Source of the DNA: a virus
Lineage: Duplodnaviria > Heunggongvirae > Uroviricota > Caudoviricetes
Virus record (IMG/VR): IMGVR_UViG_2909309443_000007
DNA length: 26,071 nt
Direction: 5' to 3' (one strand)
Shown here: positions 324 to 20,779 of the stretch, piece by piece
Layout of the letters: every line of letters starts with the position of its first letter
How positions within the stretch are numbered: position 1 is the first letter of the stretch
Translations under genes and position numbers: made by a program
Notes under the pieces: generated by a model
The model's database searches: none
The model's input: only the letters and a program-made list of their open reading frames with translations
Told to the model about the DNA's origin: nothing

Positions 324-992
324 ATGGTGAAATTAATGAAAAAAAACACACATGATGGGGCTAAAATTTACACACCACTTACCCTAAAGCTTTATGACTG
401 GTGGGTTTTGGGAGTATCAAATCGTCTTGCATGGGGATGTCCTACAAAGGAACACCTTCTTCCACACTTTCTGGAACATTTAGGTAACAACCATCTGGAT
501 ATTGGTGTTGGAACTGGGTTTTACCTTACTCACGTACCTGAGAGTAGTCTGATATCTTTAATGGATTTGAACGAAGCTAGCCTGAACGCGGCATCTACAA
601 GGGCTGGGGAATCAAAAATTAAACATAAAATTAGCCATGATGTTTTTGAACCTTATCCCGCGGCGTTACATGGTCAATTTGATTCCATTTCCATGTTTTA
701 CCTTCTTCACTGCCTGCCTGGAAATATATCTACAAAAAGCTGTGTAATACGCAATGCTGCGCAGGCCTTAACTGACGATGGAACTCTATACGGAGCCACA
801 ATTCTTGGCGATGGAGTTGTGCACAATAGCTTCGGTCAAAAACTGATGCGCATTTACAATCAGAAAGGCATCTTTTCAAACACAAAAGATTCCGAAGAAG
901 GCTTAACACATATACTCTCAGAGCATTTCGAGAATGTTAAAACCAAGGTTCAAGGTACTGTAGTAATGTTTTCCGCTTCAGGGAAAAAATAG
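324..992 (+). CDS. Class I SAM-dependent methyltransferase, substrate unknown (cargo gene)
   Basis: 222-aa ORF with a motif-I-like LDIGVGTG and overall class I methyltransferase character. AT-rich relative to the flanks. True start may be the ATG at 336. Confidence 0.6.
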   Translation: MVKLMKKNTHDGAKIYTPLTLKLYDWWVLGVSNRLAWGCPTKEHLLPHFLEHLGNNHLDIGVGTGFYLTHVPESSLISLMDLNEASLNAASTRAGESKIKHKISHDVFEPYPAALHGQFDSISMFYLLHCLPGNISTKSCVIRNAAQALTDDGTLYGATILGDGVVHNSFGQKLMRIYNQKGIFSNTKDSEEGLTHILSEHFENVKTKVQGTVVMFSASGKK

Positions 993-1032: not shown

Positions 1033-1069
1033 CATAATCCCAATGATTACTCCCTGACAGGGTTCGTAG

Positions 1070-1141
1070 GCCACTCAATATCAGGTGCAGTTGATGTATC
1101 AACACGGTTCAGCAACACCCGATACTTTTTCCAGGCTTCCA
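1070..1141. repeat. Direct repeat of the tfa 3' end (copy of 20..91, 2-3 mismatches)
   Basis: About 72 bp near-identical to the 3' end of the tfa-like ORF at 1..267. It abuts the truncated pin gene. Confidence 0.75.
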
Positions 1142-1178
1142 CCACCAGCACGACAAGATGCCGCATACAGTGACCCAG

Positions 1179-1373
1179 TCAGTCCAGTTTCCAGACAACT
1201 AGTGCGTCACCTTTTTGAAGGCGCTTTAAAGCACGTTTTAATCCAGGTCGGCCTGTCCTTGTTCCGCTTAATTTATCTTCAAATATTTGTTCACATCCTG
1301 CACAAACAAGAGCGTTTCGTTGCAGGTCTGTATTCTGGTCATTTGTTGATACCCTTACATAGCCAATCAGCAC
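1179..1373 (-). pseudogene. pin: Serine DNA invertase (Pin/Gin/Hin family) N-terminal remnant, 64 codons
   Basis: VLIGYVRVSTNDQNTDLQRNALVCAGCEQIFEDKLSGTRTGRPGLKRALKRLQKGDALVVWKLD matches recalled Pin N-terminus, then TGA. Sequence after the stop is the duplicated tfa 3' end. GTG start with GGGAGA Shine-Dalgarno. Confidence 0.75.
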
Positions 1374-1427
1374 GCTGAATCTCCCGTCCAAAAGCACAAA
1401 TCATGCCATGCAGGCCAGAAACGGCCA

Positions 1428-1453
1428 TTATCTAAAACCTCGGTTTACAGGAA
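1428..1453. promoter_or_regulatory. Invertase crossover site (gix/hix-like), site 1
   Basis: Reverse complement TTCCTGTAAACCGAGGTTTTAGATAA matches the recalled gix consensus at 25 of 26 positions. Lies between the pin remnant and the silent tail-fibre segment. Confidence 0.7.
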
Positions 1454-2437
1454 ACGGTAAGTCAGGCTTCTGGCGCATTACAGAAAAACCAGAACGGCGC
1501 AGATATTCCAGGAAAAGATACCTTCACCAAAAATATTGGTGCCTGCCGCGCATATAGCTCATGGCTGAATATTGGTGGCGATAGTCAGGTCTGGACAACC
1601 GCGCAATTTATTTCGTGGCTGGAGAGTCAGGGGGCATTTAACCATCCTTACTGGATGTGCAAAGGCTCATGGGCTTATGCAAATAATAAGGTCATTACAG
1701 ATACAGGTTGCGGAAATATTTGTCTTGCAGGTGCTGTGGTGGAAGTTATTGGCACTCGCGGCGCAATGACCATACGCGTTACTACGCCGAGCACGTCCAG
1801 CGGTGGCGGAATTACTAACGCTCAATTCACTTATATTAATCATGGTGATGCTTACGCTCCTGGCTGGCGACGAGACTACAACACGAAAAACCAGCAGCCT
1901 GCATTTGCTTTAGGGCAAACAGGACGCAGGGTCGCAAATGATAAAGCTGTTGGCTGGAACTGGAATAGCGGTGTTTATGATGCAGATATCAGTGGTGCAT
2001 CGACATTAATCCTCCACTTCAATATGAATGCGGGGAGTTGCCCTGCTGTACAGTTCCGCGTGAATTACAGGAACGGCGGTATTTTTTATCGTTCAGCGCG
2101 TGATGGTTATGGCTTTGAAGCTAACTGGTCAGAGTTTTACACCACAACACGCAAACCCTCTGCGGGGGATGTTGGTGCATATACGCAGGCAGAATGTAAC
2201 TCAAGGTTTATTACAGGTATTCGCCTTGGCGGTCTGTCATCTGTTCAGACATGGAAAGGCCCCGGCTGGTCTGACAGGTCAGGTTATGTCGTTACGGGTT
2301 CAGTTAACGGAAACCGTGATGAATTAATTGATACAACTCAGGCAAGGCCAATTCAGTATTGCATTAATGGGACGTGGTATAACGCGGGAGTATTTAACGA
2401 TGATGCACTTAAAAAACATTACTGCTGGCAACCCTAA
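1436..2437 (+). CDS. Silent alternative tail-fibre C-terminal segment (Sv'-like), no start codon of its own
   Basis: Reading frame opens inside site 1 and runs without stops to 2437. Would be fused in frame to the Stf constant part only after inversion. Confidence 0.6.
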   Translation, partial: NLGLQETVSQASGALQKNQNGADIPGKDTFTKNIGACRAYSSWLNIGGDSQVWTTAQFISWLESQGAFNHPYWMCKGSWAYANNKVITDTGCGNICLAGAVVEVIGTRGAMTIRVTTPSTSSGGGITNAQFTYINHGDAYAPGWRRDYNTKNQQPAFALGQTGRRVANDKAVGWNWNSGVYDADISGASTLILHFNMNAGSCPAVQFRVNYRNGGIFYRSARDGYGFEANWSEFYTTTRKPSAGDVGAYTQAECNSRFITGIRLGGLSSVQTWKGPGWSDRSGYVVTGSVNGNRDELIDTTQARPIQYCINGTWYNAGVFNDDALKKHYCWQP

Positions 2438-2933
2438 AACAAAAGAGCAATACCAGCTAACAAAGCAATTTAACATCAAATGGCTTTATTCAGATGATGG
2501 AAAAAACTGGTATGAGGAACAAAAGAATTTCCAGCCAGACACTTTGAAAATGGTCTATGACCATAACGGCGTTATTATTTGTATTGAAAAGGATGTTTCA
2601 GCAATTAATCCAGAGGGTGCAAGCGTCGTTGAATTACCTGATATTACAGCAAATCGCCGGGCTGATATTTCGGGGAAATGGATGTTCAAAGATGGCGTAG
2701 TGATAAAGCGAACTTATACCGAGGAAGAGCAGAGGCAACAAGCGGAAAATGAAAAGCAAAGCCTGTTGCAACTTGTCAGGGATAAAACCCAGCTATGGGA
2801 CTCACAGCTACGGCTGGGCATCATTTCCGACGAGAATAAACAAAAATTAACCGAGTGGATGCTCTATGCGCAGAAAGTCGAATCTACAGACACTTCCGGC
2901 CTGCCAGTAACGTTTCCCGAACAACCAGAATGA
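2400..2933 (+). CDS. tfa: Alternative tail fibre assembly protein (tfa')
   Basis: N-terminus [22 protein letters not shown] is homologous to the minus-strand tfa at 2962..3489; C-terminus diverges. GGAG Shine-Dalgarno upstream. Confidence 0.7.
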   Translation: MMHLKNITAGNPKTKEQYQLTKQFNIKWLYSDDGKNWYEEQKNFQPDTLKMVYDHNGVIICIEKDVSAINPEGASVVELPDITANRRADISGKWMFKDGVVIKRTYTEEEQRQQAENEKQSLLQLVRDKTQLWDSQLRLGIISDENKQKLTEWMLYAQKVESTDTSGLPVTFPEQPE

Positions 2934-2936
2934 GAG

Positions 2937-2964
2937 AAGGCCCGCTATCGGGCCTTAATTTTTA
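2937..2964. terminator. Hairpin between convergent tfa genes, acting as a terminator for the plus-strand tfa'
   Basis: AAGGCCCG-ctat-CGGGCCTT followed by a T-run on the plus strand. Confidence 0.5.
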
Positions 2965-3489
2965 CTCTGGTTTTTGTGGCCATTCAGGATTTGCCGTATC
3001 CACACGGCTGACCAGAACACTGTAGCGTTCCCATGCTTCCAGTCGTGTGCGTTCCTCGTCTGTTGCCATATTCAGCCTGACAGCGCGTTCCAGCGGTTGG
3101 ATGACTGATTCAGCTTCGGAAAGCAATGCGGCCTTTTGTGATTCGGCCTGTTGTTGTTGCTCGTCTGCCGTATAAATCCGTTTAACCACAGCTCCGTCCC
3201 TAAACATCCACTTACCGGAATCATCAGCGCGGCGGTTGGCTGTAATATCTGGAACCTCAACGACGCTATAACCTTCAGGGTTAAGCGTGGAGGCATCTTT
3301 GGTGATGGCGACAATAATATTATTTGCATCGTAAACAATCTTTATTGTGTCTGGCTGAAAGTTTTTCACTTCCTCATACCAGTTTTTACCGTCTTCTGTA
3401 TATAACCAGATAACATCAAAATTCTTTGTTAGCTGATATTGTTCTTTTGTTTTTGGATTTCCAGACTTAATATTTTTTAAATGCTGCAT
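2962..3489 (-). CDS. tfa: Tail fibre assembly protein
   Basis: 175 aa, Mu U/lambda Tfa-like. Immediately downstream of stf on the same strand. Confidence 0.8.
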
Positions 3490-3492
3490 AAA

Positions 3493-6400
3493 TTACACCT
3501 GTACGACGTTATACCATGTGCCATTGATGTATTTTTGTATTGGCCTGAAGATGGCTTCATCATCGCCATCTACTTCACCAATGATTCTTAATCCGGTAAT
3601 TGCGTGTCCGGCTTTTTCATAACGACCACCACGCGCCATCAATTGAACAACACGCGTACCCAGGCGAACATCTTTCACATAGCGGGAATCAAAATTCCCC
3701 CAGTTGCTGGGCTGTATCTGACCGTTAACAGCAAATGTTACTGAGTTATCTGTATTTCGCTGACTATAGAAATGCCAGCCTGAATCATCACCAAGCTCTG
3801 CAACAGTTGGTCTTGATGAAGTGCCCCATAAATTAAACCCTACGTTCTTCGTGGAGTTGTTGGAGCTGGATAGCGAGAATTTTTTACTATCACCTGCCTG
3901 AATGTTTTTAAAAGCAATAGCCACTCCATTCTGAAAGCGGAATACTCGCTGACTATTAGCGTAAACATCAAGAATACCATCACCATTCTGTTTAAATCCG
4001 GTATCATTATCACCAAGAACAATTGAGTTCCCACCCAACGCGTTATTCGTGCCAAGTGCCAGCCCGCCATCAATCCTGGCACCATTACCAACAGACACAA
4101 CTCCTGTTCTTAAGTTGATGTTGAATGGCCTTAATGGCCCAATATCTCCATTTTCACCCTCATTTTCTCGTGTAGGGATGATATGCAGGTGTTCTTCAGA
4201 ACGGCGAAAAATAGCACCAAAGGATGAATTAAAAATCCTCAGTGCATTGACTGTCGATATTTTTACTTCACTGCCGAAAAGGGCTTTAACAAGAACATAC
4301 AAAGCACCCCATTTAAGATTCATCAGGTCTTTTGTTGTGGTGCCATGGCGGCTTCTCCATTTGAAATATTCATTGCCGTTGTCGCCTGTTTCAAACCACA
4401 TGTATGAATCAGTATCGCTGTCGGCATCATTTTTAAATCCAATCTTCGCCCAGTCAGTATTTCTAATCCAGGCAAGGATTGAGTCGTTTGCAAAAGTAAG
4501 CCCACCGGACAAGGTATCGCCATTCTTTTGCACGGCGTTCCTGGCCCTGTTTACCGTTTCCTGTAAACCGAGGTATTCGATAACAGCGGCAACGGTCGAT
4601 TTCGCAAGAATATCCCGCCCGACTTTTGTCAGGGTTGCCAGGCTGGCGACATCATTCCCCGTAAAATACGGAAACCTGTCTGCCGCAGTAGCAAGCCCGG
4701 CCAGCGCCGTCAGGGTGGCATCTTTCGGTTGCTTACCCGCAAGCGCGTTAGTCATGGTGGTCGCAAAATTCGGGTCGTTTCCCAGCGCCGCCGCCAGCTC
4801 GTTCAGCGTATTCAGTGCGTCAGGCGACGAGTCTACAAGTGCGGCAATCGCGGCCATCACATAAGCCGTGCTTGCGATCTGAGTATTATTAGTCCCTTTT
4901 GGCGCAGTTGGCGTTGTTGGCGTTCCGGTCAGCGCAGGACTGTTTAAAGGCGCTTTCTTGTTCGTTTCATCCATTACCGCCTTAACCGCTTTTGGTGTCG
5001 CAGCCAGCGTTTCAGACGGGCTGTTAGTGGCGCTACTGAGCTGAACTATCCCTTTTCGTGCCGTCGTTGCATCCTGAGCGGTATATTTTGCGTTAGCAAG
5101 GTCATATGCTGCCTTTACTGCCTTTGGTGTTGCCGCCAGTGACTCGGAAGTGCTGTTGGTCGCACTGCTGAGCTGAACCACACCTTTTTTCGTCGTGCTC
5201 GCATCTTCCAGAGATACGGCATCAGCAATATCCTCTGCCCGTTTTGCTGCTGTTTCGGCACGCGTTGCCGCGGATTCAGCAGCAACTTTGCTCTGAGATG
5301 CAGCCGTCGCACTGCCTGCCGCCTCTGATGCTTTCGTTGTTGCTGTCGTGGCACTACCTTTCGCTGCTGACGCTTGTCTGGTCGCCTCATCTTTTGAAGC
5401 AGACGCAGATGATGCCGATGACGCCGCTGAACCAGCGGACGATGCGGCTGCCGCCTTAGAGGAAGCAGCATTGTCTGCTGAAGTCTTTGCATTTGTTTCA
5501 GAGGTTTTTGCTGCAGAAGCAGACCTCGCTGCTGCAGTGGCTTGCTTAGTGGCTTCGCCAGCCTTCGTTGTGGCTGTTGAAGCGGATGATGCGGCGCTTT
5601 CTGCCGATTTTCCGGCGGCGGTGGCACTGGCTGAGGCCTGCCCGGCACTTGTTGACGCGGCACTGGCCGACGATGCAGCCGCTGTTTTTGAACCTGCCGC
5701 AGCTGAGGCACTCTGTGCTGCTGCCGTTTCAGAAGACTTAGCGTTTGTCTCAGACGTCTTTGCCGCCTTCGCGGAATTTCCTGCCGCCGTTGCCGAGGAA
5801 GCTGCACTACTGGCACTTGATGATGCATTCGTTTCTGATGATTTCGCTGCCTCTTTTGAGGCCGCCGCCCCCCGTGCCGAGGTGGCAGCTTCTGACGCCT
5901 TCGTGGTCGCTGTGGATGCAGAAGTGGCTGCCGATTTTTGTGATGCTGCGGCATTCGTTTCTGACGTTTTCGCGGCACTGGCGCTGGTAGCTGCCGCGCT
6001 TTTTGATGACTCTGCAGCAGCAGCACTTTTCGCTGCTTCACTGGCCTTTGTCGATGCCGTTCCTGCGCTGGAAGACGCTGACTGAGCCGACGACGCGGCC
6101 TGTCCGGCTGACGTGCTGGCTGCGCGTGCTGAGCCTGCAGCATCAGTCGCATGGGTTGCCGCCTCACGGGCTGATGTGCTGGCATCACTGGCTGACTTCT
6201 TCGCGGCTGCCGTGTTCTGTGCCACTGCGGACGCGTTACGCGCCACCTCTTCCACCATCAGTTCAAAACGGCGCAGTGCCTCCGGACGGGCATCATCCTC
6301 CGTCATGGCACCGAGAAAATCATTCAGCGTACCGGGTCGGGAATCTTCATACACGGTGATGGTCCCGGCATGTGACGGCGGGAATCCGTCCACCAACAGA

Positions 6401-6582
6401 ATAACGCTGTACTGACCGTACTCAACGTCCATGCTGTAACGCCCGGCTTCATCCGGATTTTCTGAGGCCAGCGTGTTCACCACCACCGTGGTGCTGTTAC
6501 GTTTTGCTTTCAGCTGGATTGTGCAGTTCTGTACTGGTTTTCCTGTGCCGTCTTTCAGTACACCTGAAATCTTTACTGCCAT
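3493..6582 (-). CDS. stf: Side tail fibre protein (lambda Stf-like) with a long Ala/Ser/Thr-rich shaft
   Basis: N-terminus MAVKISGVLKDGTGKPVQNCTIQLKA… matches recalled lambda Stf. Contains the LNTLNELAAALGNDP and GIVQLSSATNS motifs. Distal part lies inside the invertible segment. Confidence 0.85.
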   Translation of the reverse strand: MAVKISGVLKDGTGKPVQNCTIQLKAKRNSTTVVVNTLASENPDEAGRYSMDVEYGQYSVILLVDGFPPSHAGTITVYEDSRPGTLNDFLGAMTEDDARPEALRRFELMVEEVARNASAVAQNTAAAKKSASDASTSAREAATHATDAAGSARAASTSAGQAASSAQSASSSAGTASTKASEAAKSAAAAESSKSAAATSASAAKTSETNAAASQKSAATSASTATTKASEAATSARGAAASKEAAKSSETNASSSASSAASSATAAGNSAKAAKTSETNAKSSETAAAQSASAAAGSKTAAASSASAASTSAGQASASATAAGKSAESAASSASTATTKAGEATKQATAAARSASAAKTSETNAKTSADNAASSKAAAASSAGSAASSASSASASKDEATRQASAAKGSATTATTKASEAAGSATAASQSKVAAESAATRAETAAKRAEDIADAVSLEDASTTKKGVVQLSSATNSTSESLAATPKAVKAAYDLANAKYTAQDATTARKGIVQLSSATNSPSETLAATPKAVKAVMDETNKKAPLNSPALTGTPTTPTAPKGTNNTQIASTAYVMAAIAALVDSSPDALNTLNELAAALGNDPNFATTMTNALAGKQPKDATLTALAGLATAADRFPYFTGNDVASLATLTKVGRDILAKSTVAAVIEYLGLQETVNRARNAVQKNGDTLSGGLTFANDSILAWIRNTDWAKIGFKNDADSDTDSYMWFETGDNGNEYFKWRSRHGTTTKDLMNLKWGALYVLVKALFGSEVKISTVNALRIFNSSFGAIFRRSEEHLHIIPTRENEGENGDIGPLRPFNINLRTGVVSVGNGARIDGGLALGTNNALGGNSIVLGDNDTGFKQNGDGILDVYANSQRVFRFQNGVAIAFKNIQAGDSKKFSLSSSNNSTKNVGFNLWGTSSRPTVAELGDDSGWHFYSQRNTDNSVTFAVNGQIQPSNWGNFDSRYVKDVRLGTRVVQLMARGGRYEKAGHAITGLRIIGEVDGDDEAIFRPIQKYINGTWYNVVQV
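4558..4583. promoter_or_regulatory. Invertase crossover site (gix/hix-like), site 2, inside stf, inverted relative to site 1
   Basis: TTCCTGTAAACCGAGGTATTCGATAA on the plus strand. Encodes the YLGLQETV motif of Stf; site 1 encodes NLGLQETV in the silent segment. Confidence 0.7.
4975..5195. repeat. Imperfect tandem duplication (about 85-bp units) inside stf
   Basis: Two similar DNA blocks encoding the duplicated peptide KG(V/I)VQLSSATNS.SE(S/T)LAATPKAVKA. Confidence 0.6.
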
Positions 6583-6593
6583 ATTCACCCCAC

Positions 6594-6619: not shown

Positions 6620-6646
6620 TGTCATAACACTGTGTTACCTGGCTAA

Positions 6647-7245
6647 TCAGAATTTATAACCGACACCCACGATGAACCCGTCAGTGCGCCAGTCACCACT
6701 GCCGGAGCCTTCATAAGCAAGGTCAATGGCCACGGATTCGGTCGGGTTAAACTGCACGCCAGCCCCCACGCCAGAGACGTGTTGCTGTGGCGACCGTCAT
6801 CACTTCCGGTCAGCACATCGTGCGTTTTCCCCTTGTTGTCAGTTACGCGAAGATAATCCCCGGAGAAAGTCGACACACGGCTGTAAGCCACACCCGCCAT
6901 CGCATACGCGCTGAACCATTCATTCACGCGCACAGACGGCCCCGCCATCACGCTGAACCAGCGGTTACGCACGGAATCTTCATGCCAGCGGGTATCGCTG
7001 TAATGCGTTTTTTGCTCATCTTTGGCATTGGCATAACTGAATGACGTCACCAGCCCCAGCGTGTCCGTAAATTCATAACGGTATTTCACGTTAATGCCCT
7101 TCAGGTCATCACTGCCTGGCATATCAGTATGGGTCTGAAGATACCCGGCGCTTAGTGTGGACTGATGCTCTGCTGCGCTCGCTGGCGTACCAGCGGCAAC
7201 CAGCCAGACTACTGCGGACAGAATAACAGCACATAATTTACGCAT
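6647..7245 (-). pseudogene. lom: Lom/Ail-family outer membrane protein, frameshifted near the C-terminus
   Basis: Signal peptide and Lom-like body. The canonical C-terminus …DWRTDGFIVGVGYKF is in another frame after a C5/G5 run at about 6763-6767. Confidence 0.7.
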
Positions 7246-7312: not shown

Positions 7313-9163
7313 TCAGCTAATCGTGATGCCTGTAGTGGCTTTCTTCATCACCACAACCAGCAAATCGCTGATACTTGCTGTGGGATACCAGTTATTTACC
7401 AGCCATGCTGACACCGAAAACTCCAGTGTCATGTGACCGTGACCGGCAGGCATATCAATAACGCCACTGTAAATCAGCGTATTATCCAGCGCGGTACGGT
7501 TATAAATTTCAGCACCGTTTTTCCGCACTATCAGACGGCATGAGGAGTAAATATCAGTATGCTCTCTCTCATGCTTAGCGCCACTGAATGCCACCGCCGG
7601 AATAACAATCTGCCGGTCAAACGGCTGATCGTCATAAACCCTGACGGTAATGGTTCCTGATGGCCACCGCTCCGGTGCACGGGAGTCCCGGGGGAAAGCT
7701 TTGCCCACTGTTTTAACGAGATCGCCTTCAATCTGGTTGGCGGACAGTTTTCCCAGAACCCGACAGTTCTCGTTAATCGTGACGTTGTTGAGCGTCCCGG
7801 AGTTCGCATTCACGTTACCGCTGATATCGGCATTTTTCGCCGTCAGCCGCCCGTCCGGTGTCAGGGAAAATGCCGGAGGATTACCGCCGCTGGTAATGGT
7901 GGGAGCCGTCAGGCGTTTCAGGAACACTTCGTTCATGAATATCTGATCGCCCTGACCAACAAACATCGGCTTTGTGTTGCCATTCGCAGGATTAATCATC
8001 GCAATCCTGTCTGCCGCCAGCAGCACCTGACTCTGCATGCCGTCAGGGGTGTTCTCAATACCGGCACCAATACCCGCGATATAAAGGCGTCCGTCCTGCA
8101 TCTGCTGCAGCTTCACAGCCCACATGCTGTTCAGGTTATTATTTGTATCAACCTGAACCTTCTGTATCTGCTGAATTGCCGCACTCTGGTCTTCCAGTTT
8201 CTTATTGACGGTCTGTGTGATTTCATTGCTGACATCCGTAATGGATGTCCTGATTTCAGCCAGGTCAGGCGCAAGCTGACCGTTATCAATCTGCGTCCAC
8301 AGCTCCTGAGCCAGATGGGTTTTCCCTATCTCGCCTTTGAAAAAATCCAGATAGCCGGATGCGTCATCACTCGGCTGACCAACAGCCTCCACGAATGCCG
8401 ATTTGCCAACGGTGTTCACACTGCGAACGTAAAAATAATAATCATGGCCCGGTTTGATATTGATACTGGCGGCTATCCAGTACAGCGCCGTGCCAAGATA
8501 GCGGGCTGTGGTTTCAACCTGCCTGATATCCGCAATCCGCTTTTCCGAGAACCAGAACTCAAACTGTACCGTCGGATCATAAACGGCAAGATGCGGCGTG
8601 GCGGTTATCTGAAAATAGCCCGGCGTCAGCTCAATCCGCGACGGCGCTGCCGGTGCGGCAATCCGGAACGATACCGACGCCGGATCGCCCTGCTGTCCCC
8701 ATGCATTTACTGCCCGGACTGTCAGCCTGTAGTTCCCCAGAGCCAGTTGTGTGAAGCGGTAAGTGGTTTCCGTCGTCCGGGCCGTGCTGACCAGCCGCTC
8801 ACTGCCGTCATCCGCTGCCACGGTCAGGCGAAGCATAAAGCTCACCCCCTTCACCACCTTCGGCGTGTCCCAGCGGGCCAGCACCTGGTATTCCCCGCTG
8901 TCTGCGGTGACTTCGGCGGTCAGATGCTGCACTGCTGGCGGCGTGACACCATTCACCGTGCCGCTCTGGTTACCGTCAAAGTGCGCCCCGTTATCCACGA
9001 TGGCTTCTTTCTCCGGTACATGCTGCACTGCAGTGATGGCATACGTACCGTCGTCGTTCTCACGGATACTCACACAGCGGAACAGGCGCTGGCGCAGCGT
9101 CGGCAGCTTCAGCCCCCACACGCTGTACTCGGCAACGCCGTCAGGAACCCGACTCACTTTCAC
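7313..9163 (-). pseudogene. J: Host specificity protein J, C-terminal fragment of roughly 615 codons (5' half deleted)
   Basis: C-terminus …[49 protein letters not shown]… matches recalled lambda J. Upstream frame joins an L remnant out of frame. Confidence 0.8.
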
Positions 9164-9164
9164 C

Positions 9165-9239
9165 TTCCCAGAGCACCACGCTGGCCGACTGCTCCGCACG
9201 GGTGCATTCATTCAGTGTTTCCTGCCGGATATCCTGCAT
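9165..9239 (-). pseudogene. L: Tail protein L, N-terminal 25-codon remnant
   Basis: ATG overlapping the M stop (ATGA) encodes [25 protein letters not shown] as recalled for lambda L, then jumps into J. Confidence 0.6.
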
Positions 9240-9568
9240 CAGTTCACCACCTGTTCAAACTCTGCGCTGAACTCAACACGCAGCATACTGACCCGCGACG
9301 ACCATTTTGCGCAGGTCACCTTTATCTGCCGCCACTCATAAGGCGGCGTCCACAGAAAGGCTTTCCAGCCCCCGTGCTCAGCCAGAAACGACTCCAGCGC
9401 CGTGGCCTCCTCACGGGAGACAGACAGCGTCACGCTGTACGTTTTCAGGTCAGCGTTCAGCCCGGCAGGCGCTCGCTGAGAATAGCCATCACCAAAGCGC
9501 ACCTTTCTTACGGAAGGGGCCGAAGCCACATCCATACCGGGTTTCGCTTTCCAGCGGAAGGTCTTCAT
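9239..9568 (-). CDS. M: Tail tip assembly protein M
   Basis: 109 aa, near-identical to recalled lambda gpM (MKTFRWK…EFEQVVN). Confidence 0.85.
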   Translation of the reverse strand: MKTFRWKAKPGMDVASAPSVRKVRFGDGYSQRAPAGLNADLKTYSVTLSVSREEATALESFLAEHGGWKAFLWTPPYEWRQIKVTCAKWSSRVSMLRVEFSAEFEQVVN

Positions 9569-12039
9569 CGTCCACCTCCGGAGAACAGACCACCATCGCG
9601 CATCTGTGCCTGAATTTCATCACGGGCCCCCTTACGGGCCATGTCATACACTGCCTTCATCATCTGTGGACCTGGCAGACCATTCGTACCGTCGTTCTGA
9701 ATCACCACGTGATTGTTCTGATTAAAATTAATGCCTTCCGCCCGCCGCATCTGCGCCGGACTTCCGGCACCGCCCACATAACCACCTTCCGCATAGCCGC
9801 GCATCAGCCGGTAGAGATTTCCCACGCCAATCCGGCTGGTTGCCTCCTTCGTGAAGACAAATTCACCACGGTGAACAATCCCCGCTGGCTCATATTTGCC
9901 GCCAGTTCCCGTAAATCCCCCGGTCGCAAAATGGAATTTTGCCGCAGCAGCCTGAATGGCTGTACCGCCTGACACTGATGCGCCACCACCGGCAGCACCG
10001 CCAATGGCGCTGCCGATACTCCCGACAATTCCCACCATTGCCTGCTTAAGCAGAATTTCTGTCATCATGGACAGCACGGAACGGGTGAAGCTGCGCCAGT
10101 TCTGCTCACTGCCGGTCAGCATCGCCGCCATATTCTGTGCAATACCATCAAAGGTCTGCGTGGCAGCACTTTTAACCTGCGACATACTGTCCGTGGCGCT
10201 CTCTTTCCACTCACTCCAGCCTGACCTGAGGCCTGCCATCCAGCTCCCGCGAAGCTGGTCTTCAGCTGCCCAGGTCTTTTTCTGCTCTGACATGACGTTA
10301 TTCAGCGCCAGAGGATTATCGCCATACTGTTCCTTCAGGCGCTGTTCCGTGGCTTCCCTCGCTGCCTGCCGGTCAGTCAGCCCCCGGTTTTTCGCATCAA
10401 TGGCGGCCCGTTTTGCCCGTTGCTGCTGTGCGAATTTATCCGCCTGCTGTGCCAGCGCGTTCAGGTGTTCCTGATAGGTGACCTTGTCGCCAAGTGCAGC
10501 CAGCTGGCGTTTGTACTCCAGCGTCTCATCTTTATGCGCCAGCAGGGATTTCTCCTGTGCAGACAGCTGGCGACGTTGCGCCGCCTCCTCCAGTACCGCG
10601 AACTGACTCTCCGCCTTCCACAAATCCCGGCGCTGCTGGCTGATTTTTTCATTCGCTCCACTATGCTGCTCAAGCATTTTTAGTTCAGCTTGTAACGCAA
10701 GAAGAGCTGCATGTGCTCGATCTTCCTGACGCTCTCCCGCAGCGGACTGCTTCGGCTTTTTCAGCGTCGCTTCATAGTCCTTTTTCGCCGCCGCCATCAG
10801 CGTGTTGTAATCTGCCTGCAGGATTTTCCCGTCTTTCAGTGCCTTGTTCAGTTCTTCCTGACGAGCGGTATATTTCTCCAGCGGCGTCTGCAGGCGTTCG
10901 TAAGCCTTCTGCGCCTCTTCGGTATATTTCAGCCGTGATGCCTCAGACTCGGCCCAGTCCTTTGCTGCCATCTCTCTGGCCTTTTCAAGATCGGCCTGCA
11001 ACGTGGCGGCTGAAAGCCCAAGTTGCGCATTCGCTCTGTCCTCCCATGCTCCCCGGAGATTGGCAAGAAATGCTGAGGTTTTACCGCGCCGGTGGCTCCG
11101 GCTCTGATACCACTGCCATTTTTTGTCCGCCTCATCAAAAGCCTTTTCTGCTTTCTCCAGCATTCCCTGGGCAGTGTCCGGGCGACCAATATCCAGCACC
11201 GCATCCCACATGGATTTGAATGCCCGTGCTGTCCTGTCTGCCCAGGTCTCCAGCGTGCCCATGTTCTCTTTCAGGCGGAGGGTCTGGTCATCAAACCCTT
11301 TCGTTGCGGCCTCGTTCGCCGCCTGCAATGCCCCGGCTTCATCTCCGGAACGCTGCAACTGAGCAACATACGCAATCTGCTCCGCCGTCACGTTATGGAA
11401 CTGACGTGCCATCGCTGTCAGTCCCGACGTCGGGTCTGTGGTCAGCTTCCCGAAGGCTTCAGCGACCTTGTCCACCTCCACGCCGGATGCAGAGGAGAAA
11501 CGCGCCACACTCTGGCTGATCGCCTCAAACTGCTCACCACCACGCACACCGGCATTCACCAGCGCCGTCAGTGACTCGCTGGTCTGGTTAAACGTCAGCC
11601 CTGCCGCCTGCCCGGCTCTGGACAGGACCAGCATACGATCTGCCGTCAGTCCCGCCTGATTGCCGGAAAGGACCAGCGTTTTGTTGAAATCGGACAGGGT
11701 TGAGTTGCCCTGATACCAGGCATACGCCAGCGCACCGGTCGCCACCGCCAGCGAGGTGGCCCCCACCATCGGCAGGGTGATCGCACCGGCAAGCCCCCTG
11801 AACATGGGGATCATCCCGCCGAAGGAGTCCTTCACCTGACCACCCTGTTGCAGCAGGATCAGCCACGGACTTTGCCCGCCTGCAAGCTGCGTGGCCACGT
11901 CAGTGAACTGTGCAGGCAGCATACGCATGGCGGCTTTATACTGTCCGACGGAAATGGCCATTGCGGCGGCACCGGGCACCGCCGTTCTGCTGATACGGCT
12001 GAGGTTTTCAACGGCCTGCTCAAGACCTTTTATGGCCAT
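9565..12039 (-). CDS. H: Tail tape measure protein H with its N-terminus replaced by the first 29 codons of Z (in-frame Z'-'H fusion)
   Basis: MAIKGLEQAVENLSRISRTAVPGAAAMAI matches recalled gpZ N-terminus; from SVGQYKAAMRMLPAQFTD… it matches recalled gpH to the C-terminus. 824 aa, shorter than lambda H. Confidence 0.75.
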   Translation of the reverse strand: MAIKGLEQAVENLSRISRTAVPGAAAMAISVGQYKAAMRMLPAQFTDVATQLAGGQSPWLILLQQGGQVKDSFGGMIPMFRGLAGAITLPMVGATSLAVATGALAYAWYQGNSTLSDFNKTLVLSGNQAGLTADRMLVLSRAGQAAGLTFNQTSESLTALVNAGVRGGEQFEAISQSVARFSSASGVEVDKVAEAFGKLTTDPTSGLTAMARQFHNVTAEQIAYVAQLQRSGDEAGALQAANEAATKGFDDQTLRLKENMGTLETWADRTARAFKSMWDAVLDIGRPDTAQGMLEKAEKAFDEADKKWQWYQSRSHRRGKTSAFLANLRGAWEDRANAQLGLSAATLQADLEKAREMAAKDWAESEASRLKYTEEAQKAYERLQTPLEKYTARQEELNKALKDGKILQADYNTLMAAAKKDYEATLKKPKQSAAGERQEDRAHAALLALQAELKMLEQHSGANEKISQQRRDLWKAESQFAVLEEAAQRRQLSAQEKSLLAHKDETLEYKRQLAALGDKVTYQEHLNALAQQADKFAQQQRAKRAAIDAKNRGLTDRQAAREATEQRLKEQYGDNPLALNNVMSEQKKTWAAEDQLRGSWMAGLRSGWSEWKESATDSMSQVKSAATQTFDGIAQNMAAMLTGSEQNWRSFTRSVLSMMTEILLKQAMVGIVGSIGSAIGGAAGGGASVSGGTAIQAAAAKFHFATGGFTGTGGKYEPAGIVHRGEFVFTKEATSRIGVGNLYRLMRGYAEGGYVGGAGSPAQMRRAEGINFNQNNHVVIQNDGTNGLPGPQMMKAVYDMARKGARDEIQAQMRDGGLFSGGGR

Positions 12040-12306: not shown

Positions 12307-12336
<30 letters not shown>
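12051..12336 (-). pseudogene. Head-tail joining protein FII, C-terminal fragment
   Basis: MGTSATMTSGEQSGAVIRGVFDDPENISYAGQGVRVEG…PPAVNRRR matches recalled lambda FII from about codon 23. Joined directly to the truncated portal frame. Confidence 0.7.
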
Positions 12337-14177
<1,841 letters not shown>

Positions 14178-14424: not shown

Positions 14425-14501
14425 TGGCGCGTTGTACTGGATTCGAACCAGTGACCGATTGCTTAGAAGGCAATTGCTCTGTCCGGCTGAGCTAACAACG
14501 C
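14425..14501 (-). tRNA. tRNA-Arg (anticodon UCU)
   Basis: Hand-folded cloverleaf: acceptor GCGTTGT/ACAACGC, anticodon loop CTTCTAA, T-arm GGTTCGAATCC, discriminator G plus CCA. Confidence 0.85.
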
Positions 14502-14514
14502 ATAATGCAGATAA

Positions 14515-14591
14515 TGGATTGCCATCGGGGACCCGAGCCCCACACAGCCAGTTTCGAAAGCTGGCACTCTCTGTCGATGAGCTAATGGCGG
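14515..14591 (-). tRNA. Degenerate tRNA-like sequence (Arg-like anticodon UCG), possibly a pseudogene
   Basis: D-arm and overall length are tRNA-like, but the acceptor stem has two terminal mismatches, the anticodon stem has a C-A mismatch, and the T-loop is CTCGGGT rather than TTCRAAT. Confidence 0.4.
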
Positions 14592-14598
14592 TATGTGA

Positions 14599-14674
14599 TG
14601 GTGGCCCTTGCTGGATTTGAACCAGCGACCTGGCGATTATGAGTCGCTCGCTCTCACCACTGAGCTAAAGGGCC
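14599..14674 (-). tRNA. tRNA-Ile2-like (anticodon CAU; Met not excluded)
   Basis: Hand-folded cloverleaf: acceptor GGCCCTT/AAGGGCC, anticodon loop CTCATAA, T-arm GGTTCAAATCC, CCA end. Closely resembles recalled E. coli ileX. Confidence 0.8.
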
Positions 14675-14723: not shown

Positions 14724-15773
14724 TCAAACGATTAAATCCTGAACTTCCCTGACTGTCTGTTCAAAACGTCCTGTCTCCAGCTCAACACCAATCGCACAAC
14801 GCCCCAGTGCCATCGCCGCTTTTACCGTTGAACCTGAACCCATAAAAAAATCTGCAACCAGGTCTCCCGGACGACTGCTCGCGTTGATTATCTGCTGCAG
14901 CATTTCTGCCGGTTTTTCGCACGGATGTTTTCCTGGATAGTACTGCACCGGTTTATGCGTCCAGACATCGGTGTACGGAACCTGCGCCGTCACACCGAAA
15001 TACCGCCGCAAATTTTTATATTCACTCAGCAGTTCCGTGTACTGCCGGTTCAGCTCACTGTATGTGCTGACCAGCTGGTGGTGTGGCTTTTCCAGTTCCC
15101 CGCGCTGATGTTTTTCTGCCGCAACACGCGCAAACAACGCCTGCAATTTGTTGTAATCACCCTCGTTCGGTAACTGCCACTGACTGGTACCAAACCAGTG
15201 CGAAGCCATGTTTTTCTTTCCGGTGGCTTCCGCTATCTGTTTTGACGTTATTCCCAGTGATTTACGCGCATCACGAAAGTAAGAAATCAGCGGGGCCATG
15301 ACGTGCTGTTTTAGCTCGCGCCCCTGTGCCACATAGCCATCATCTTTCGGGCGATACGGTCCCTGATAATGTTCTGCAAACAGAATGCGCTCTGTTGCCG
15401 GAAAATACGCCCGCAGACTTTCCTTATTGCACCCGTTCCAGCGTCCGGACGGCTTCGCCCAGATAATGTGGTTCAGCACATTAAAGCGCTCACGCATCAT
15501 GATTTCGGTGTCAGATGCCAGGCGATGACCACAGAACAGGTAAAGACTTCCGGTAGGCTTCAGTACCCGCCAGAACTGCGCCAGACACTGGTCCAGCCAT
15601 TTCAGGTAATCATCGTCGCCCTCCCACTGGTTATCCCAGCCCTCGGGCTTCACTTTAAAGTATGGCGGGTCTGTGACTATCAGATCGACAGAATTTTCCG
15701 GTAAGGTCTGGATAAACTCCAGGCAATCAGCGTTGATTAACTCACAACTGGATATTTTTACAGTATTAATCAT
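14724..15773 (-). CDS. DNA amino-methyltransferase (N6-adenine or N4-cytosine), orphan
   Basis: DPPY motif (…LIVTDPPYF) near the N-terminus and an FxGSGST AdoMet-binding motif near the C-terminus. No restriction endonuclease partner nearby. Confidence 0.8.
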   Translation of the reverse strand: MINTVKISSCELINADCLEFIQTLPENSVDLIVTDPPYFKVKPEGWDNQWEGDDDYLKWLDQCLAQFWRVLKPTGSLYLFCGHRLASDTEIMMRERFNVLNHIIWAKPSGRWNGCNKESLRAYFPATERILFAEHYQGPYRPKDDGYVAQGRELKQHVMAPLISYFRDARKSLGITSKQIAEATGKKNMASHWFGTSQWQLPNEGDYNKLQALFARVAAEKHQRGELEKPHHQLVSTYSELNRQYTELLSEYKNLRRYFGVTAQVPYTDVWTHKPVQYYPGKHPCEKPAEMLQQIINASSRPGDLVADFFMGSGSTVKAAMALGRCAIGVELETGRFEQTVREVQDLIV

Positions 15774-19369: not shown

Positions 19370-20284
19370 ATGGCTAGCAAGCGCTTTTTCTTCGATTTTT
19401 ATCAATGTCACACTATAAGCACTGATACAAATGCAGGAGTTAATTCACCTGAAGCTGTTTTTTCAAAAATTTTTGAGTCATACAGCGAAGGCCGAGACAA
19501 AACTGTACGTAAAATAGGAAATAAACTAGTTGAAATGCGCTTCATGGAAAGAACCGACTATGGTTTCAGGGGAGTTATAGGAAAACACAGAACCAATAAT
19601 CTCCCTCATGTTGCTGTAGCCGGAGGTGAAGAAAGAGAAATTAAACTTGAAATCAATGAAAACTTATTAGAAAAAGCTTATTTTCATTTTTATACCCAAG
19701 ACTCAGTTTTAATAATTCAACGAAACAGACTCTGTTATGGCTGGTTGCTATTAAGTAAATATCTTTCCAACAGTTCACAAAATACAACTGTTAATCCCAT
19801 CATTCAGACCAGTAGTTTAAAGTGGTTGATGCGTAATGAAGTTCGAATCAAAACTCTAGAAATCGGTATCGCTCGGCCAAAGAATGTGCAACTATATGAG
19901 GATGTTGAACATAACTTCAACAATGCATTGATAGCCACTCTAAATGGTACTAATTCTGCCAAAGTAAATCTTACATTACGTGGGGATAGTCGTTCTGAAG
20001 ATCCTGAATCTCGCTATCTAGGTTCTCAACTAAAAAGAGCCTTTAAAGAAACACTAGAGACTTTTGAGGTTGAAAAACTTAAACTAGAAACCCAAGACAT
20101 TGAGACCGGTGTACAGCATCCTATCGATCTTGTAGCAGACAAATTAGTCTACTACACAGATGTTGAACTTGGAGGTAGGTATCCATTAGTTGGCAGCATT
20201 TGGAGCGCCTTAACTCTTGCAAAAGATAGTAAAGATGATGAATTGAAGGCATACTTTGGAGTAGCCAATCAAAGAGTTGATTAA
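19370..20284 (+). CDS. Hypothetical soluble protein (304 aa), candidate sensor component of a two-gene module
   Basis: Long ORF in an AT-rich island. No recognisable catalytic motif (no P-loop). Charged, probably helical C-terminal region. Confidence 0.55.
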   Translation: MASKRFFFDFYQCHTISTDTNAGVNSPEAVFSKIFESYSEGRDKTVRKIGNKLVEMRFMERTDYGFRGVIGKHRTNNLPHVAVAGGEEREIKLEINENLLEKAYFHFYTQDSVLIIQRNRLCYGWLLLSKYLSNSSQNTTVNPIIQTSSLKWLMRNEVRIKTLEIGIARPKNVQLYEDVEHNFNNALIATLNGTNSAKVNLTLRGDSRSEDPESRYLGSQLKRAFKETLETFEVEKLKLETQDIETGVQHPIDLVADKLVYYTDVELGGRYPLVGSIWSALTLAKDSKDDELKAYFGVANQRVD

Positions 20285-20299
20285 TTTTGGAGCGATGGT

Positions 20300-20779
20300 A
20301 TGAAAAAGGGGAAATTGATAACTTTGTACAGTTATGGTTATAATTTAGCCTCTGTTGTTTTTTGTATCATCGCATGGCCTCTTTCTGCAAAGCTAAATTT
20401 TGCACAAATTCAGCCAATCGCTTCGGCCGTTTCTACATTTTCTGGGATATTATTTGGCTTTGTTTTAGGTTCGCTTACCTTGATTGCTTCAGCTAGAGAT
20501 AATACGCTAATTAGAAATATAGGAAAAACTGGTTATTTGAAAAAACTGACCGAAGAAATGCACTCCACTATGGGATGGTTACTATCAGTTTGTATTATTT
20601 TTATCATTTTATTATTTTTCCCTGATACACTAAAGTTTAAATTCCCACTAGTAAAAGATGCCGACGAGCACACATATGCCCAACTATTACTCCAAGTGGG
20701 AATTTTTTTCCTGCTTATTACATTTAAAAAATTTTATACTACCTGGTCGCGTCTAAAGGACATAACAAGGCTCATGTGA
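20300..20779 (+). CDS. Hypothetical membrane protein (159 aa) with four predicted transmembrane helices, candidate effector
   Basis: Four hydrophobic stretches of about 18-24 residues. Starts 15 bp after the upstream stop with GGAG in the gap. Confidence 0.6.
   Translation: MKKGKLITLYSYGYNLASVVFCIIAWPLSAKLNFAQIQPIASAVSTFSGILFGFVLGSLTLIASARDNTLIRNIGKTGYLKKLTEEMHSTMGWLLSVCIIFIILLFFPDTLKFKFPLVKDADEHTYAQLLLQVGIFFLLITFKKFYTTWSRLKDITRLM

Follow-up and report, generated by a model that had tools for sequence, protein, structure and literature searches.

An orphan Mu G-segment-type tail-fibre cassette in a decayed lambdoid prophage, found in both orientations among sister Escherichia coli strains

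The IMG/VR virus record IMGVR_UViG_2909309443_000007 is a stretch of 26,071 nucleotides (nt), which we refer to as the window. It is the late-gene end of a lambdoid prophage adjoining potB in a lineage of enterotoxigenic Escherichia coli (ETEC), and its first 7 kb are approximately 100% identical to several ETEC chromosomes (E1433, E1620, ATCC 43896 and others). Reading leftwards on the minus strand from position 9211, the genes are J, lom, stf and tfa. Beyond tfa lie a second tfa and a startless tail-fibre C-terminus (both on the plus strand), a short recombinase open reading frame (ORF) on the minus strand, a tfa 3' fragment, a methyltransferase gene and a further tfa 3' fragment. Our subject is the tail-fibre cassette made up of stf, the two tfa genes, the startless C-terminus and the recombinase ORF, together with the two recombination sites that bracket its variable part. 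The features of the cassette, by position, are the following.

1047-1140, minus strand: tfa 3' end of about 30 codons, DLP12 tfaX-type, fused in frame behind the invertase stub
1141-1178, minus strand: 12 invertase-like codons past the stop of the stub, pinE-like, not gin-like
1179-1373, minus strand: invertase stub, gin-like, 64 codons, with GTG at 1371-1373 and TGA at 1179-1181
1289-1351, inside the stub: putative recombinational enhancer (sis homologue), with Fis-like 15-mers at 1337-1351 and 1289-1303
1428-1453, plus strand: left gix-type site, core 1440-1441, arm 1428-1460, 25/26 match to Mu gix
1442-2437, plus strand: silent startless Stf C-terminus, Mu S'-type, Pfam gp37_C, about 94-97% nt identity to S' of Mu, D108 and P88
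2400-2933, plus strand: tfa' (Mu U'-type), chaperone of the silent arm, Pfam Caudo_TAP (2.2e-36), inside the 93.6% match to Mu
2962-3489, minus strand: tfa (Mu U-type), chaperone of the joined arm, Pfam Caudo_TAP (1e-37), with a Mu match
3493-4571, minus strand: currently joined variable Stf C-terminal part, within the invertible segment
4558-4583, minus strand: right gix-type site, core 4570-4571, arm 4551-4583, 24/26 match, within the stf frame
4572-6588, minus strand: constant N-terminal part of stf, Pfam phage_tail_N (2.2e-72) and Phage_fiber_2 repeats, outside the segment

To find the sites we used as query the gix sequence TTATCCAAAACCTCGGTTTACAGGAA, taken from the Mu prophage of strain S17-1 (locus L005), with at most 3 mismatches allowed. 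The window has exactly two matches, one on the plus strand (1428-1453, 1 mismatch) and one on the minus strand (4558-4583, 2 mismatches), and 100 dinucleotide-preserving shuffles of the window have none. A repeat search reports the inverted-repeat arms 1428-1460 and 4551-4583, which are 33 nt long and 94% complementary. The inverted repeat and the gix matches are not due to chance. Read in a common direction, the two sites agree in the central dinucleotide, TC, and throughout the inner half-site; two positions of the outer half-site set them apart.

The segment between the sites, 3.1 kb in length, holds two C-terminal stf arms with one tfa per arm. The intact stf ORF (3493-6588, minus strand, 1031 amino acids (aa)) reads ...VIEYLGLQETVNRA... 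through the site, and the startless plus-strand frame from 1442 reads NLGLQETVSQASG... and runs to a stop at 2437. When the segment is inverted in silico at the central dinucleotide, the result is again an uninterrupted Stf, ...VIEYLGLQETVSQASG.... A constant 5' part outside the segment, two in-frame 3' parts inside it and an assembly-chaperone gene behind each part constitute the arrangement of a Mu G-segment-type switch. The order J, lom, stf, tfa, the Stf N-terminal domain and the Caudo_TAP matches identify the proteins as lambdoid Stf and Tfa; the RefSeq name for the constant part is 'prophage tail fiber N-terminal domain-containing protein'. In the RefSeq relatives the silent arm ends about 39 nt earlier, with GGGG there and GGG in the window at 2386. 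For strain E8 both resulting Stf ORFs are annotated as intact, their lengths in the two orientations being 3090 nt and 2970 nt.

The similarity to Mu is extensive. Positions 1183-3491 of the window, corresponding to the 5' end of gin, gix, S', U' and U, are 93.6% identical to Mu in nucleotide sequence. The joined arm resembles Mu Sv only at 4279-4590; elsewhere it shares 91% identity with the equivalent arm in the P2-like prophage that strain RM13752 carries. Judged by its sequence, the cassette is a tail-fibre switch of the Mu G-segment type, belonging to the Din family (Gin/Cin/Pin/Hin), that has been grafted onto the stf of a lambdoid prophage.

Of the cassette's own invertase gene, only a stub is left. 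The recombinase ORF spans 1179-1397 on the minus strand, and its GTG start is that of Mu gin. The Pfam Resolvase match covers only positions 2-73 of the 145 in the profile and HTH_7 is missing; the stub keeps the region of the catalytic Ser and lacks helix E and the DNA-binding domain. Codons 1-64 are identical to Mu gin at 186/192 nt and to e14 pinE at 135/192 nt, and the stub protein shares 62/64 aa with Mu Gin. Past the TGA the affinity changes: the stretch there is identical to e14 pinE codons 65-78 at 35/42 nt, versus 21/42 nt for Mu gin, and its 12 pinE-like codons run into the tfa 3' end. That end is a second copy of a tfa 3' fragment, given by the direct repeat 17-95 / 1066-1144 (95% identical). 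Because gin-like codons 1-64 are followed by pinE-like codons and then by a tfa 3' end, the stub is a chimera produced by at least two recombination events and a CGA-to-TGA change. RefSeq annotates it as a 195-nt 'recombinase family protein' and the tfa fragment as 'tail fiber assembly protein, missing N-terminus'. As predicted from its domains, the stub cannot encode an active enzyme. Where a Din-family segment has a serine invertase with Resolvase and HTH_7 domains next to it, this one has the stub only, and a tblastn search of the whole window with Gin and the P2-like invertase finds no second invertase, only the stub.

We considered a sequencing error as the source of the stop codon and rejected it. 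The TGA lies outside any homopolymer, it is present in all relatives, and the same tfa/stub junction occurs in 535 of 5426 complete E. coli genomes (at least 80% coverage of a 421-nt probe spanning the junction). The junction is found at three or more chromosomal sites, namely potB, dusA (strain JX2) and prfC (strain AR434). No record in the phage collection has it; the best phage matches, P88, D108 and Mu, begin exactly at the stop codon of the stub and have intact invertases. In AR434, near prfC (locus L015), the stub and the invertible cassette sit in a prophage whose decay has gone further still; it has lost most of the constant stf part, and a full-length fibre is impossible in either orientation.

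An earlier reading made from the letters of the window (the sequence-only reading) had described most of this layout, and all the features that it named are found where it had placed them. It had placed two gix-like sites at 1428-1453 and 4558-4583, and the second is also present in our independent search with the real Mu gix; it had both Stf C-termini in frame through the site, each with its tfa, as the ORFs and the in-silico inversion confirm; and it had proposed a Mu G-segment-type switch, in keeping with the nucleotide identity to Mu. Its 64-codon pin remnant followed by a duplicated tfa 3' end agrees with the partial Resolvase match and the 95% tfa repeat, and the truncation it reported is real, given that there is no full-length frame and that the junction recurs in other genomes. 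The pinE-like codons past the stop had escaped it.

The stub has one more property of interest. Din inversion requires a Fis-bound enhancer in cis. A motif scan finds two Fis-like 15-mers in the stub, 48 nt apart, with centres at 96.5 and 144.5 nt from the gix core. The motif sequence is identical in Mu gin, and the motifs are at the same positions in the P2-like invertase gene and in the host pin described below. In the Hin system, an enhancer of approximately 65 bp, whose two Fis sites have a spacing of 47 bp, is located about 100 bp from one recombination site and acts at a distance (PMC3798978); in Mu, the gin coding region itself contains the Fis sites (PMC3378877; Kahmann et al. 1985 as cited in PMC3798978). 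Because of this published geometry, the homology and the motif scan, we place a putative cis enhancer at the pair of Fis-like motifs. The part of the invertase gene that survives is the part with the predicted enhancer.

Orientation of the segment among sister strains

The prophage around the cassette has several internal deletions, which serve here to tell one haplotype from another. Its altered late genes are the following.

6643-7245: lom, frameshifted in the window by C5 versus C6 at 6763
7313-9211, minus strand: J, C-terminal 632 aa only, internal deletion
9565-12039: Z-H (tape measure) fusion ORF, internal deletion
12307-13752: portal fragment, internal deletion

Because J is truncated, Z and H are fused and the portal gene is only a fragment, the prophage is defective and unable to assemble virions on its own.

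We compared orientations with a flipped query, 701 nt of the in-silico inverted sequence that span the tfa fragment, the stub, gix and the other arm. The flipped junction is present at 100% identity in the strains E8, E1648, E1654 and E1739, and at 99.9% in E1316. Altogether, 138 genomes are flipped and 130 are oriented as in the window. E8 is the clearest case. Compared with the flipped window it has 0 mismatches across 8.76 kb, and over the whole 26,071 nt the differences are 2 substitutions and 8 single-base homopolymer indels. The deletion pattern of the window is shared at 100% only with E8, E1648, E1654 and E1739, all four of them flipped. A second deletion haplotype also has both states, with E54 unflipped and E1316 flipped. 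The differences between the outer half-sites stay in place after the flip, which puts the exchange within 1437-1460, consistent with the central dinucleotide. In these comparisons of genomes, the segment flips and the exchange falls inside the sites. Since both orientations are found on the same decayed, stub-bearing haplotypes, inversion has taken place at least twice since the decay of the prophage, long after the invertase was lost.

This result goes against the claim of the sequence-only reading that the switch is frozen: the flipped junction is found in stub-bearing sisters, and E8 is in effect the flipped window. A frozen switch could be kept only if the two orientations were an ancestral polymorphism that predates the loss of the invertase, or if one of them had been imported by homologous replacement. 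In favour of this, the stub module is of long standing and broad distribution, with 535 genomes and at least three integration sites, and lambdoid prophages recombine readily, as the mosaic matches and the chimeric stub attest. However, the two orientations occur on one decayed haplotype with the same deletions and 2 substitutions in 26 kb, and once more on the haplotype of E54 and E1316. Import would demand a donor identical to the recipient on both flanks and also inside the segment, and the outer half-site differences are unmoved, as expected for inversion in situ. We regard a frozen switch as highly improbable.

Another possibility is that no invertase is involved and that RecA-dependent recombination between the 33-nt inverted repeats turns the segment. 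The crossover is mapped only to the 24 identical bases of 1437-1460, and recombination between short inverted repeats does happen at low frequency. On the other hand, 24-33 nt are at or under the minimal efficient substrate of RecA and such events should be very rare, which fits poorly with orientations that are near 1:1 (138 versus 130) and that differ among near-identical clones. A longer inverted homology, that between the two tfa genes (161 nt, 76%), did not yield the observed junctions. Everything that site-specific inversion requires in the sequence is intact, and each of the three lineage genomes examined for a competent enzyme has one. We find RecA a very unlikely cause of the inversion.

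Candidate invertases in trans

That any inversion of this segment needs an invertase supplied in trans, as the sequence-only reading had proposed, is supported by the non-functional stub. We looked for other pin and gin genes on the side of the host, by blastn with the 3' half of an invertase gene, which is the part missing from the stub. Din-type invertase 3' halves are present in 3166 of the 5426 E. coli genomes (58%), plasmids included, and E54 is among the matches listed. The gene pinE belongs to e14, whose usual site is beside icd; at icd in E1433, e14 and hence pinE is absent, and iraM comes directly after icd.

The strains E1433 and E54 (both unflipped) and E8 (flipped) have instead a prophage remnant near paoD/avs2 with two pin genes. 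One of them encodes an intact Pin of 184 aa (WP_000905042.1), found in all three of the lineage genomes examined. This protein has complete Resolvase and HTH_7 domains and is 95% identical to e14 PinE and 78% to Mu Gin. The other pin copy, of 172 aa, is without the end of the HTH domain. NCBIfam gives no useful family call for the host Pin, nor for the methyltransferase of the window.

Between the two pin genes, which are inverted relative to each other, lies a second invertible tail-fibre segment, a mini-segment of about 1.8 kb that resembles the e14 P segment (locus L010, 6886-9839, in E1433; locus L009 in E54; locus L011, 30512-33464, in E8). It adjoins the Avs2 anti-phage gene and a gene for a LEM-3-like GIY-YIG nuclease near paoD. 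The sites of the mini-segment are TTTTCATAAACCTTGGTTTTGGAGAA and TTTTCATAAATGTTGGTTTGGGAGAA. It is inverted between E54 and the pair E1433/E8, and both pin genes stay put, which suggests that an active invertase operates in the lineage.

Invertases of this family act beyond their own segments. PMC12529663 and the works it cites describe inversion of the Mu G segment by PinE, of the Salmonella H segment by Fin (from Fels-2), and of the e14 P segment by PinQ (from Qin). For StfE2, the product of the PinQ-driven e14 inversion, a phage-blocking function is reported (PMC12529663).

We propose that the cassette is an orphan Din-type substrate, consisting of two sites and an enhancer, that is inverted in trans, most probably by the resident Pin, and we give this explanation a probability of roughly 0.8. 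In this proposal, the cassette's own invertase would have decayed to the chimeric stub while both sites and the enhancer stretch survived. A related serine invertase would then flip the segment in trans, the likeliest one being the 184-aa Pin encoded near paoD/avs2 on the same chromosome. Inversion at the central dinucleotide would join one or the other arm to the constant part of stf. We infer that Pin catalyses the reaction, that the enhancer is functional, and that the exchange is site-specific and not the work of RecA.

Several points weigh against this proposal. The evidence for inversion is a comparison between assemblies and not within one culture, and the crossover interval 1437-1460 also fits a homologous exchange in 24 identical bases. 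The gix-type sites of the cassette (core TC) disagree at 8/26 positions with the pix-type sites (core TT) that the resident Pin uses, and the cross-reactivity attributed to Pin rests on published work with e14 PinE, to which it is 95% identical. The genome from which the window comes is outside the RefSeq set, and the presence of Pin in it is deduced from its near-identity to E8. Finally, the acting enzyme is ambiguous, given the 3166/5426 genomes with a Din-type 3' half and given that Mu-, P1- and P2-like phages are also possible suppliers.

This last point amounts to an explanation of its own, in which the enzyme in trans is not the paoD-linked Pin and comes from a P2-, Mu- or P1-like phage, from a plasmid or from a transient superinfection. 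Mu, D108, P88 and P2-like prophages carry invertase genes that are 93-97% identical to the stub, Din-type 3' halves are as common as described, including those on plasmids, and the sites of the cassette are gix-type, the cognate sites of Gin-like enzymes. Set against this, the three lineage genomes examined have the intact Pin, and its own segment is flipped among them, suggesting that it is active. In E1620 the stub-containing 701-nt query is found at two places only, which argues, with no direct check made, against a close second gin-like gene. We consider an enzyme other than the resident Pin unlikely.

The sequence-only reading had also held that host-range switching can occur only with an invertase in trans. 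The need for a trans enzyme stands; the host-range switching itself is doubtful in a prophage so heavily deleted. Since virion assembly is beyond this prophage, the flipping of its segment is probably a neutral by-product that has no bearing on the host range of the element.

Carrier prophage and neighbouring genes

In sister strains the same prophage has been deleted in other ways. E1433 retains a complete J and is without the tape measure and portal genes, and E54 and E1316 show a third pattern.

The window has single-base homopolymer differences from RefSeq E8 and E1433 at positions 2386, 6763, 15888, 19204, 20703, 21096, 22455 and 24024. Two of them have visible effects: through the difference at 2386 the silent Stf arm gains about 13 codons, and the one at 6763 causes the frameshift in lom. 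The pattern looks like long-read consensus error of the source assembly rather than biology.

To the left of the cassette, an intact gene for a class I methyltransferase dependent on S-adenosylmethionine (324-992, plus strand) is enclosed by the two 95%-identical tfa 3' ends (17-95 and 1066-1144). This combination of methyltransferase and tfa is the ybcY/tfaX module that ends DLP12 in K-12, where the methyltransferase is a frameshifted pseudogene. JX2 and AR434 have a stub module that is similar apart from lacking this methyltransferase module.

Further to the right, the stretches 14425-14674 and 14724-15773 hold two prophage-borne tRNA genes and, next to them, a gene for an N6/N4 DNA methyltransferase. 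One of the two is a tRNA-Arg (tct) and the other has a CAT anticodon, which makes it a tRNA-Met according to ARAGORN and a tRNA-Ile according to RefSeq. The stretch 19370-20779 includes a gene for a DUF6731 protein (304 aa) and a neighbouring gene for a 159-aa protein without a Pfam match. Both genes, which neighbour hokD and the Q antiterminator gene, run counter to the prophage genes around them and could be a moron or defence cargo.

Relation to known switches and meaning for E. coli

Among the closest known systems is the G segment of Mu with its invertase Gin, found also in D108. The two sites match gix at 25/26 and 24/26 positions, and S', U' and U are about 94% identical in nucleotide sequence. 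The invertase gene has the same position and reads away from the segment, and the Fis-site region of gin is identical. As in Mu, a constant tail-fibre N-terminus lies outside the segment, and two C-termini with their chaperones lie inside. Unlike in Mu, the constant part is a lambdoid Stf with phage_tail_N and not Mu Sc, one of the variable arms is not that of Mu, the invertase gene is cut to a stub of 64 codons, and the cassette sits in a defective lambdoid prophage.

The e14 P segment of K-12, with PinE, is similar in that a defective lambdoid prophage has an invertible stf/tfa cassette of the Din family. In contrast to the present cassette, e14 has its own intact pinE, a segment of 1.8 kb and pix sites with core TT. 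The reported block of phage adsorption by StfE2 belongs to the e14 system.

The action of PinQ (Qin) on the e14 P segment and of Fin (Fels-2) on the Salmonella H segment provides the precedent for the invertase of one prophage inverting another locus (PMC12529663). The targets in those two cases still own an invertase, PinE and Hin, respectively, whereas here the cassette's own gene is a stub and dependence on an enzyme in trans is complete.

A further group is formed by the segments of P2-like prophages, such as P88 and the prophage of RM13752. The 5' region of the invertase gene together with gix is 96-97% identical to theirs, and the variable arms with tfa are about 91% identical. In the RM13752 prophage the segment has the opposite orientation relative to the invertase. 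Unlike the prophage in the window, the P2-like prophages have an intact invertase of 199 aa and a constant part of the myovirus H type. The cassette is an ordinary one, common in E. coli, and it has nothing mechanistically new beyond the Gin/Pin/Hin paradigm.

A more adventurous idea is that the stub is retained for its enhancer, which would keep the orphan cassette responsive to any Din invertase, and that the host uses the two Stf/Tfa products as a phase-variable surface or receptor-masking function against phages, in the manner reported for StfE2 (PMC12529663). When we looked for selective conservation of the enhancer by comparing the stubs of three lineages, their divergence was too small to tell. 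We hold this idea to be very unlikely. If it were true, approximately 10% of E. coli genomes would have a domesticated tail-fibre phase switch under control in trans.

A dead invertase beside an invertible segment does not imply that the segment is locked. The inference is a tempting one, and the cassette in this ETEC prophage corrects it. Most E. coli genomes carry several Din-family invertases, and orphan cassettes in E. coli remain substrates for them. Near-identical assemblies will differ by such inversions and annotation will alternately label one arm or the other as a pseudogene, with consequences for pangenome and single-nucleotide polymorphism pipelines. The cassette is also a natural instance of a notion that has lately regained attention, the sharing of recombinases between loci by cryptic prophages.

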